In this document: positions 27,730 through 29,180 of the stretch, in pieces
Position numbering within the stretch: position 1 is the stretch's first letter
Layout of the letters: each line of letters begins with the position of its first letter
Virus record (IMG/VR): IMGVR_UViG_2511231131_000001
Reading direction: 5' to 3' (one strand)
Length of the DNA stretch: 64,000 bases
Source: a virus
Taxonomy: Duplodnaviria; Heunggongvirae; Uroviricota; Caudoviricetes
Position numbers and translations under genes: made by a program
The notes under the pieces: generated by a model
Seen by the model: only the letters and a program-made list of their open reading frames with translations
The model's database searches: none
What the model was told of the DNA's origin: nothing

Positions 27730-27991
27730 GCAAATGTTGACTATGCGCGAAGGTTAATGTGAATAGTTGACTATGCGCGATGTGACTACAGTCAAAAGTT
27801 GACTGTAGTCGATTTAACTCCACCAAAGATCGACTATGTAAGATATTGTCGGGAGAAACGTTGACTATACGCGATGAAATGGGCCTAAAAGCCATCTCAA
27901 TAGCGACTTGCAGAATATTGACGCCAGCAAAAATCCACCAGCGTCAACGAATGTCGCCTATAGTCAACTTCTCGCTATCGCATATAGTCAA
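27730..27991. repeat. incA-like iteron array
   Basis: Multiple copies of GTTGACTATGCGCGA and its complement TCGC.TATAGTCAA downstream of repA. Confidence 0.65.
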
Positions 27992-27993
27992 TA

Positions 27994-28914
27994 TTATGGA
28001 TTGCGCTTATGGATCTGGAAGCCGATTTTCCTGCCGTTTTTTATCTCTGAAAATTTAAGATATTCAATAGCTTCCAAATCTTTCATGGCTTTTCTGATAA
28101 CGCTATTTTGCACGCTAACGGATGATTTGAGATTAAGCCTCGCTCTAAGGCGCTCAATGCTGACAGGTGCCGGGTTGGCGGGTAGAGCCTCAAAGAATGT
28201 ATACAGTACCTTGGCTGTCTCTTTGCGCCCTAGTTTATCCAGCATCTTCAGCTTCAGGATTCGCTTATAGTCAACATAGTAAAGTTCAGATAGCTGTTTC
28301 TGCGGCTGGATCTCGATAACATCAAGCTCGGTATTCAGGCTGCTATATGCCAACAAGTTGACGTTAATGTTATTGAGATGACCTTTTGCCGCCGGGAAGC
28401 GGAATTTGACAACTGTCTGCTGAATGCGTGTCAGAGAGTCATCAATACTTTTACGGAACGCCTTTGAAAGACGCTTACGTGGATAGCCGCATCGATCGGC
28501 AAACTCGGAGAATGGCAGGGTGATTATACCGTCATCATCAGGTGCATAGTCAAACAACGCGGAGGTTATGCCCACCCACACCTTAAAATCAGTATCCATA
28601 TCCAGGCGTGGACCATGAATTTCAATTCCCTCATAGCCTTCCTGCTCAACAATTTTGAGGCTTGATAGTTCTTCAGTTGCGTTCGTTGTGTTTGTTGTAA
28701 CTGACGATCCGCGACGTAGCGCCACATTGGTAGATTTTAAGGTTGGCACAAACACACCTAAACGCAACAAAGCGATGGGTTGTATAGTGCTGTTGTTATT
28801 GGGCTTCAGGCTGTGGATTTCTCCTGTATTTCCTGCAACTTCTTCAACGCTAAGGAAGCCTTTACTTTCTTCCGGCATCGTGGTTTCTCCATGTGTGGCG
28901 CGGCCTGACGTCAA
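27994..28914 (-). CDS. repA: RepA iteron-binding plasmid replication initiator
   Basis: GPRLDMDTDFKVW and C-terminal blocks RepA-like; flanked by iteron arrays; true start may be the internal Met MPEESKGF. Confidence 0.7.
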   Translation of the reverse strand: MTSGRATHGETTMPEESKGFLSVEEVAGNTGEIHSLKPNNNSTIQPIALLRLGVFVPTLKSTNVALRRGSSVTTNTTNATEELSSLKIVEQEGYEGIEIHGPRLDMDTDFKVWVGITSALFDYAPDDDGIITLPFSEFADRCGYPRKRLSKAFRKSIDDSLTRIQQTVVKFRFPAAKGHLNNINVNLLAYSSLNTELDVIEIQPQKQLSELYYVDYKRILKLKMLDKLGRKETAKVLYTFFEALPANPAPVSIERLRARLNLKSSVSVQNSVIRKAMKDLEAIEYLKFSEIKNGRKIGFQIHKRNP

Positions 28915-28957
28915 TTTGGATGGCTGTTATCAACAGCTGTGAATATTCAGACTCTAA

Positions 28958-29062
28958 AATCGCGTACAGTCAATGTTTCTGTCGCGTATAGTCAACAATA
29001 AATCGCGTGCAGTCAACAATAAATCGTGCACAGTCAACATAAAATCGCGTATAGTCAATGTT
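28958..29062. repeat. incC-like iterons, 5 copies at about 21-bp spacing
   Basis: TCGCGTAyAGTCAAC core repeated five times directly upstream of repA. Confidence 0.7.
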
Positions 29063-29180
29063 GATCCCATTTCAGGCCAGAAATGACGCGGCTTACAGCG
29101 ATCCGGGATCTTCTTTGGATCTTACTAGGTTCTCTTTAGGATCTGTTTATTGGATCGATGCTGTGGATAAGTTGAATAAA
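29063..29180. promoter_or_regulatory. plasmid origin core: GATC cluster plus DnaA box
   Basis: Six GATC within about 100 bp; exact DnaA box TGTGGATAA at 29172..29180; second near-box TTATCAACA at 28926..28934. Confidence 0.55.

Follow-up and report, generated by a model that had tools for sequence, protein, structure and literature searches.

Positions 27730 to 29180 of the window, by which we mean the whole 64,000-nucleotide stretch of DNA that was analyzed, hold a replicon composed of a gene for a predicted iteron-binding initiator, iterons on both sides of this gene, a cluster of Dam sites, and DnaA boxes. The replicon is part of a longer module that differs from the corresponding part of phage P1. 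A partition system of P1 type lies to the left of this module, and an immunity repressor gene of P1 type is found in the same window. The features are as follows:

24422-26723, minus strand: P1-type partition system (parS, 24422-24504; parB, 24509-25510; parA, 25527-26723)
26824-29175, no strand: replicon module differing from P1 (T5orf172 gene, control iterons, repA, origin iterons, and the half with GATC sites and DnaA box)
26892-27701, minus strand: T5orf172/GIY-YIG-family gene, 269 amino acids, between parA and the control iterons (Pfam PF10544, E = 4.7e-6)
27734-27876, minus strand: distal control (incA-like) iterons, four strong ones at 27734, 27764, 27796, and 27858 and a degenerate one at 27824-27842
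27952-27994, plus strand (as the origin iterons): two proximal control iterons, 17.3 and 20.8 bits
27994-28878, minus strand: repA, Rep_3-type iteron-binding initiator by homology (Pfam, P1 RepA), 294 amino acids
28259-28277, plus strand: iteron-like site within the repA coding sequence, 19.8 bits, identical in pO111_2
28927-28935 and 28938-28946: two DnaA-box-like sites with one mismatch each, TTATCAACA on the plus strand and ATATTCACA on the minus strand
28958-29061, plus strand: five origin (incC-like) iterons, direct repeats, 23.0 to 26.2 bits in the weight matrix
29063-29156, no strand: cluster of six GATC (Dam) sites, starting at 29063, 29100, 29107, 29118, 29140, and 29153
29162-29170, minus strand: perfect DnaA box TTATCCACA (TGTGGATAA on the plus strand), at the outer end of the origin
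62431-63282, minus strand: c1 immunity repressor gene of P1 type, product identical to P1 C1.100 at 282 of 283 positions

The five origin iterons follow each other at start-to-start distances of 22, 21, 21, and 21 bp and share the consensus AATCGCGTAYAGTCAAY; the iteron core of the replicon is TCGCGTAYAGTCAAY. When a weight matrix built from these five repeats was run over the window, 12 sites reached at least 17 bits, every one of them inside 27734-29061, and the top score in the rest of the 64 kb was 14.2 bits. A degenerate iteron pattern matched 13 times against 3.2 matches expected, a count reached by none of 100 shuffles. Beyond the iterons, five GATC sites are packed into 57 bp (29100-29156), where 0.23 would be expected (Poisson P of about 4e-6), making this the densest window for GATC in the whole stretch. 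The pair of DnaA-box-like sites with one mismatch each sits at the other end of the origin, between the start of repA and the iterons. Every origin iteron carries TTGACT on the strand that codes for repA. A scan with the sigma-70 consensus returned no promoter on this strand at the scan threshold, and when we read the region upstream of repA by eye, the −35-like TTGACT of each iteron was all that could be recognized, with no convincing −10 element.

The assignment of RepA to the Rep_3 initiators rests on homology. Its match to Pfam Rep3_C (27.3 bits) exceeds the cutoff of 21.1, and that to Rep3_N (22.0 bits) falls just under the cutoff of 22.4; P1 RepA likewise carries both families, which correspond to the pair of winged-helix domains found in iteron-binding initiators. 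A search of NCBIfam gave no match for RepA, for P1 RepA, or for the T5orf172 protein, and a sequence search of the PDB with RepA returned nothing significant (best E value, 0.39). For the start of repA, we adopted the ATG used by the NCBI annotators, which has GGAG ahead of it; the mechanically called open reading frame extends to a TTG at 28914. The distal control iterons are spaced about 31 bp apart, are inverted with respect to the origin iterons, and score 17.7 to 23.2 bits, and the second of the two proximal control iterons touches the repA stop codon.

To relate this arrangement to the IncY replicons, we compared it with the annotated P1 genome (NC_005856), whose RepA has 286 amino acids, and with P7. 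The original prediction had described the architecture as P1-like, and five iterons, repA, control iterons, GATC cluster, and DnaA box all lie where it had placed them. The likeness extends to the geometry of the repeats: copies 10 to 14 of P1 incC are spaced by 22, 21, 21, and 21 bp, exactly as the origin iterons here, and copies 1 to 6 of P1 incA match the distal control iterons in their period of about 31 bp and in the logic of their orientation. Copy 9 of incA (61753-61771) abuts the end of P1 repA at 61771, as the last control iteron does here. The numbers differ, since P1 has nine control iterons (six distal and three proximal, in opposite orientations), whereas the replicon studied here has seven or eight (four strong plus one weak, two, and one intragenic). 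On the other side of the origin, the GATC cluster aligns at 76% identity with P1 oriR, where five Dam sites are annotated. DnaA boxes at both ends of the origin are likewise common to the two replicons: P1 has a box with one mismatch at the end equivalent to 28927-28946, and its outer end features tandem boxes, of which the extra one lies in a 7-bp indel, compared with the single perfect box found here. Genomic position and flanking genes are also shared, except for the T5orf172 gene, which in the window separates Ppar from the control array and which P1 lacks.

In contrast to this shared geometry, the sequences through which initiator and origin would recognize each other differ. RepA is 42% identical to P1 RepA (115 of 272 residues; E = 9e-71) and 42.3% identical to P7 RepA, and not more than 90%, the level at which RepA and iterons would have counted as those of P1 in the alignment that the original prediction proposed. 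The P1 iteron GATGTGTGCTGGAGGGAAA is unrelated to TCGCGTAYAGTCAAY and has no match in the 64 kb even with up to three mismatches allowed, and an alignment of the two iteron arrays gives 34% identity, no more than chance would produce. The iterons are therefore unlike those of P1, just as had been suspected, and neither by RepA nor by iteron type does the replicon belong to IncY. At the same time, it has the elements that define a P1-type architecture, namely, a Rep_3 initiator, five iterons accompanied by GATC sites and DnaA boxes, and a control locus with iterons in two orientations. Given the RepA homology and a repeat geometry identical to that of P1, the replicon is not an unrelated one but is truly homologous to the R replicon of P1, its initiator and recognition sequence having diverged together.

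The differences from P1 are confined to a sharply bordered module in a backbone that is 97 to 100% identical to P1. On the left, identity is 97.7% over 26650-26823 and then drops to about 30%. This border, at 26823, lies 17 to 19 bp upstream of the −35 element of Ppar, and the promoter and operator of par are therefore kept. On the right, identity is 76% over 29076-29171 and 90 to 100% from about 29177. The module replaces positions ~61314 to ~62911 of P1 NC_005856 and is, with ~2.35 kb compared to ~1.6 kb, longer than its P1 counterpart because of the extra gene for the 269-residue T5orf172 protein. One might assign the half with the GATC sites and the DnaA box to the P1 backbone, but its 76% identity does not fit the 97 to 100% of the backbone, and we rejected this option. 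Because of this discrepancy, the segment 29076-29171 most likely came in with the rest of the module. The positions conserved in it are the GATC heptamers and the DnaA boxes, both of which are recognition sites of host factors.

The backbone includes the partition system, which had been called P1 type from the window alone and indeed is: ParB is identical to that of P1 at all 333 positions and ParA at 397 of 398, and the six ParB boxes annotated in parS, A as well as B boxes, all match those of P1 exactly. The few differences in parS fall between the boxes or in the IHF site. The same holds for the immunity region, where 60700-64000 is 99.2% identical to 91500-94800 of P1; the single difference in C1, G193 versus C193, probably stems from the ts mutation that the reference strain carries.

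We then asked which known initiators are closest to RepA. Among the best 5,000 records of a PLSDB search, 394 carry a RepA at least 95% identical, four fall between 60 and 95%, and the remainder do not exceed 49%. Initiators of RepFIB type (F-like, IncFIB(K)) and SSU5-like initiators belong to the same protein family as RepA, align over nearly their full length at 44 to 49% identity, and are thus marginally closer than P1 RepA. Klebsiella plasmids with a gene annotated as RepFIB reach 48.6%, the RepA of the SSU5-type phage-plasmid reaches 45.7%, and many Escherichia coli plasmids, one from O157:H7 EDL933 included, reach about 45%. In the annotation by NCBI, all of these initiators go by the names “RepB family plasmid replication initiator” or “RepFIB replication protein A.” P1 RepA (42%) does not stand nearer to RepA than initiators from other plasmid groups do, which supports a predicted specificity of RepA distinct from that of P1.

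The group of near-identical relatives identifies the replicon. As comparison record for the p0111 type, we used NC_013370, the RefSeq plasmid pO111_2 of E. coli O111:H- 11128. RepA matches its counterpart in pO111_2 at 292 of 294 amino acids and repA at 868 of 885 nucleotides (98.08%), above the nucleotide identity of ~95% or more over most of the length of the pO111_2 reference that we take to be the requirement for a p0111 call by PlasmidFinder. Over its full 1.5 kb, the region is 97.5% identical to pO111_2 and no iteron is missing; of the 13 iteron sites, 11 are the same to the base and two carry a single change each. Similarity is lowest (88%, compared to 98 to 99% elsewhere) in the leader of 78 bp that separates the iterons from the start of repA. 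RepA and its counterpart in RCS47 are 100% identical, and all p0111 elements compared (pO111_2, RCS47, SJ46, JL22, and phi456) show only allelic differences from the replicon in the window. In p0111 elements, as here, the replicon is flanked by parA and upfA, and a T5orf172 gene is linked to it. AP010962 has been named as the p0111 reference sequence (PMC11165635). We are highly confident that the replicon at 27730-29180 is the p0111 version of the plasmid-prophage replicon, theta-type and iteron-controlled, of a P1-like phage-plasmid, with a proposed RepA mechanism like that of P1.

This replicon is widespread. A PLSDB search with the 1.5-kb region yielded 398 records, of which 395 reach at least 95% identity (best, 99.9%; most between 97.6 and 99.9%), and 377 records cover at least 80% of it. 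The hosts are Escherichia (369 records), Salmonella (23), Shigella (4), and Klebsiella (2), and the records are mostly ~90 to 100 kb in size and nonmobilizable. Twelve phage records, including RCS47, SJ46, JL22, and phi456, contain the region at 97.6 to 99.2% identity. The repA gene of p0111 is present in 414 of 5,426 complete E. coli genomes, with 409 of 417 copies located on plasmids. Given its wide occurrence on plasmids, the p0111 replicon is maintained as a plasmid in nature.

The split between IncY and p0111 has also been described. Of 55 P1-like phage-plasmids, 31 were of IncY and 24 of p0111 type, and JL22, which has p0111 repA in place of IncY repA, lysogenized MG1655 (PMC9603915). 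In Salmonella, 132 p0111 and 94 IncY elements were reported, with 17 switches inferred on the tree (PMC11165635), and genes of both types are used in routine screening (bioRxiv preprint from 2025, 10.1101/2025.09.12.675607). The replicon is thus already known, the IncY/p0111 split having been published in papers from 2022 to 2025 and being part of routine replicon typing. Of the suggestion that the element represents a distinct incompatibility group, one part holds, as its replication specificity is swapped and it is typed apart from IncY; the other part, novelty, does not, since it is the catalogued p0111. A search of the accessible literature found no paper on p0111 together with iterons. 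The base-level map of iterons, DnaA boxes, GATC sites, and borders relative to P1 may therefore be unpublished, though predicted by homology to P1, and it may help those who build p0111 mini-replicons or incompatibility probes.

By analogy with P1, for which initiation, autoregulation, and handcuffing have been described, one can propose how the p0111 replicon works. RepA, as a winged-helix initiator of the Rep_3 type, would bind the five 19-bp origin iterons; host DnaA would then act at the flanking boxes, and the Dam-methylated, GATC-rich segment beside the iterons would open. As the origin iterons overlap the region upstream of repA, RepA would downregulate its own production. The additional seven or eight iterons near the downstream side of repA would titrate RepA and handcuff with the origin iterons, and titration and handcuffing together would keep the plasmid at about one copy per chromosome. 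By the same analogy, p0111 RepA would not be expected to bind P1 iterons, nor P1 RepA those of p0111.

This last expectation would fail if the replicon were functionally still IncY, that is, if both RepA proteins cross-reacted with the iterons of the other. It is tempting to consider such cross-reaction in view of the homologous initiators, the identical geometry of the two origins, and the 76% identity of the half that holds the host factor sites. However, the P1 iteron is missing from the window even at three mismatches, the aligned arrays are no more similar (34%) than by chance, and P1 RepA, at 42%, is at least as distant from RepA as initiators of the SSU5 or RepFIB type are, so that we regard cross-reaction as very improbable. 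Even less credible is the idea that repeats and repA survive as an inactive remnant while another replicon keeps the element. Nothing specific speaks for it, apart from the fact that the 64 kb represent only part of the element, whereas repA is intact and its product is 100% identical to RepA of RCS47, 11 of the 13 iteron sites are identical to those of pO111_2 despite a regional difference of 2.5%, and repA is the sole annotated plasmid initiator gene in the inspected stretches of pSA186_4, RCS47, and pO111_2 (1-58000). A functional p0111 replicon with its own specificity fits these observations far better, and the question becomes what this specificity means for coexistence with P1.

The original prediction went further and proposed that the swapped specificity would allow the element, as a member of an unrecognized incompatibility group, to live stably beside true P1/IncY plasmids. 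At the level of the replicon, this has some appeal: RepA and iterons differ in specificity from those of P1 and P7, which makes cross-inhibition through incA and incC unlikely, and incompatibility of this kind between p0111 and P1 should be absent because their iterons are unrelated. The same expectation has been voiced before, in the statement that p0111 and IncY “can theoretically be compatible” (PMC11165635). We therefore looked at the joint occurrence of both types in the 5,426 complete E. coli genomes. IncY (P1) repA was found in 359 genomes (360 records) and p0111 repA in 414 genomes (414 records), and a concatenated query with both genes hit 771 genomes (774 records). By inclusion-exclusion, both types are present in two genomes and in no single record. 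Independent distribution would predict 27.4 genomes with both, so that cocarriage is depleted more than 10-fold (one-sided Fisher P = 8e-11) in this observational census, whose genomes are not independent samples. Genomes with two records of one and the same type (one for IncY, none for p0111) are about as rare as those with both types.

Thus, the claim of coexistence is only weakly borne out, by two complete genomes with both repA types, a number far below expectation and hardly higher than that of same-type pairs. The rest of the element offers a likely reason, even though the census itself cannot separate effects of replicon, partition, and immunity. As ParABS is identical to that of P1, partition incompatibility (incB) should remain, and since C1 matches that of P1 at 282 of 283 positions, the element and P1 should each be immune to the other. 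It is therefore probable that the coresidence of p0111 and P1 elements is still prevented by the partition and immunity functions they have in common. The census speaks against free compatibility of IncY and p0111 in nature, which is commonly assumed. With the group itself already recognized as the p0111 type, as indicated by the match to pO111_2 and by earlier work (PMC9603915), we consider an unrecognized group in stable coexistence with P1/IncY plasmids unlikely, and a known p0111 replicon in a P1 backbone remains the preferred description.

The T5orf172 gene is the one component of the module without a counterpart in P1. NCBI annotates its product as “GIY-YIG nuclease family protein”; the protein belongs to phrog_2876, to which no function is assigned, has a weak match to an endonuclease PHROG, and matched no model in PADLOC. 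The gene is closely linked to the replicon in its distribution: it occurs in 400 plasmid records, all at 90% identity or higher and with the same host breakdown as the 398 records of the replicon, and no plasmid homologues below 90% identity were found at an E value of 1e-8. It is tempting to speculate that the protein is a putative homing-type nuclease that, where two P1-like genomes share a cell, cuts the par-rep junction of the IncY element and thereby drives gene conversion to the p0111 module, although we consider this quite improbable. If true, homing would explain both the sharp borders of the module and the repeated switches between IncY and p0111, such as the 17 reported for Salmonella (PMC11165635). 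The gene is intact in the window and split into two open reading frames in pO111_2, and it is therefore dispensable for maintenance.

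The replicon (p0111 type, with repA on the minus strand at 27994-28878) diverges unevenly from that of pO111_2 (NC_013370), which stands in for the p0111 reference AP010962. repA, both iteron arrays and the part carrying the GATC sites and the DnaA box are 96-99% identical to pO111_2, compared with 88% identity in the 78-bp leader that runs from the origin iterons to the repA start codon (28879-28956), making this leader a local divergence hotspot. The promoter of repA, together with DnaA-like boxes, is expected within this leader.

The replicon is flanked by a gene that is absent from P1 and broken into two open reading frames (ORFs) in pO111_2:

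26892-27701, minus strand, T5orf172/GIY-YIG-family gene, between Ppar (the promoter of the P1-type par operon) and the control iterons downstream of repA

This gene was found in 400 plasmid records, compared with 398 for the p0111 replicon, with an equal host distribution, and it is conceivable that it takes part in module exchange.

Nomenclature of the p0111 replicon is inconsistent between tools. In pSA186_4 (NZ_CP022733.1), a 99.9% identical P1-like plasmid, the replicon is typed as "IncHI1B" (PLSDB/MOB-suite), while PlasmidFinder-based papers name the same repA p0111 and NCBI product names for the p0111 RepA include "RepB family," "RepFIB replication protein A," and "replication helicase." Among complete E. 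coli genomes, eight chromosomal repA copies of the p0111 type and eleven of the IncY (P1/P7) type were found, which are either integrated P1-like elements or assembly artefacts. In the same genomes, six records matched p0111 repA at 60-80% identity and one at 90-95%; these are possible intermediate relatives.

A second GATC-dense stretch (59923-60070), twice reaching four sites per 60 bp, falls within an ORF (59729-60922) that aligns with P1 pacA, a position presumably consistent with that of pac, the packaging site that is under Dam regulation in P1. The last 3.3 kb of the window (60700-64000) are 99.2% identical to P1, and the final base coincides with that of the P1 record (NC_005856, position 94800, within lox), so that the source record appears to have been linearised at P1's own point. 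This region encodes the C1 repressor:

62431-63282, minus strand, C1 repressor gene, differing from the P1 reference solely at residue 193

Residue 193 is G in the window and C in c1.100, and since C1 differs from c1.100 at this residue only, the predicted protein is probably a wild-type, non-thermosensitive repressor.
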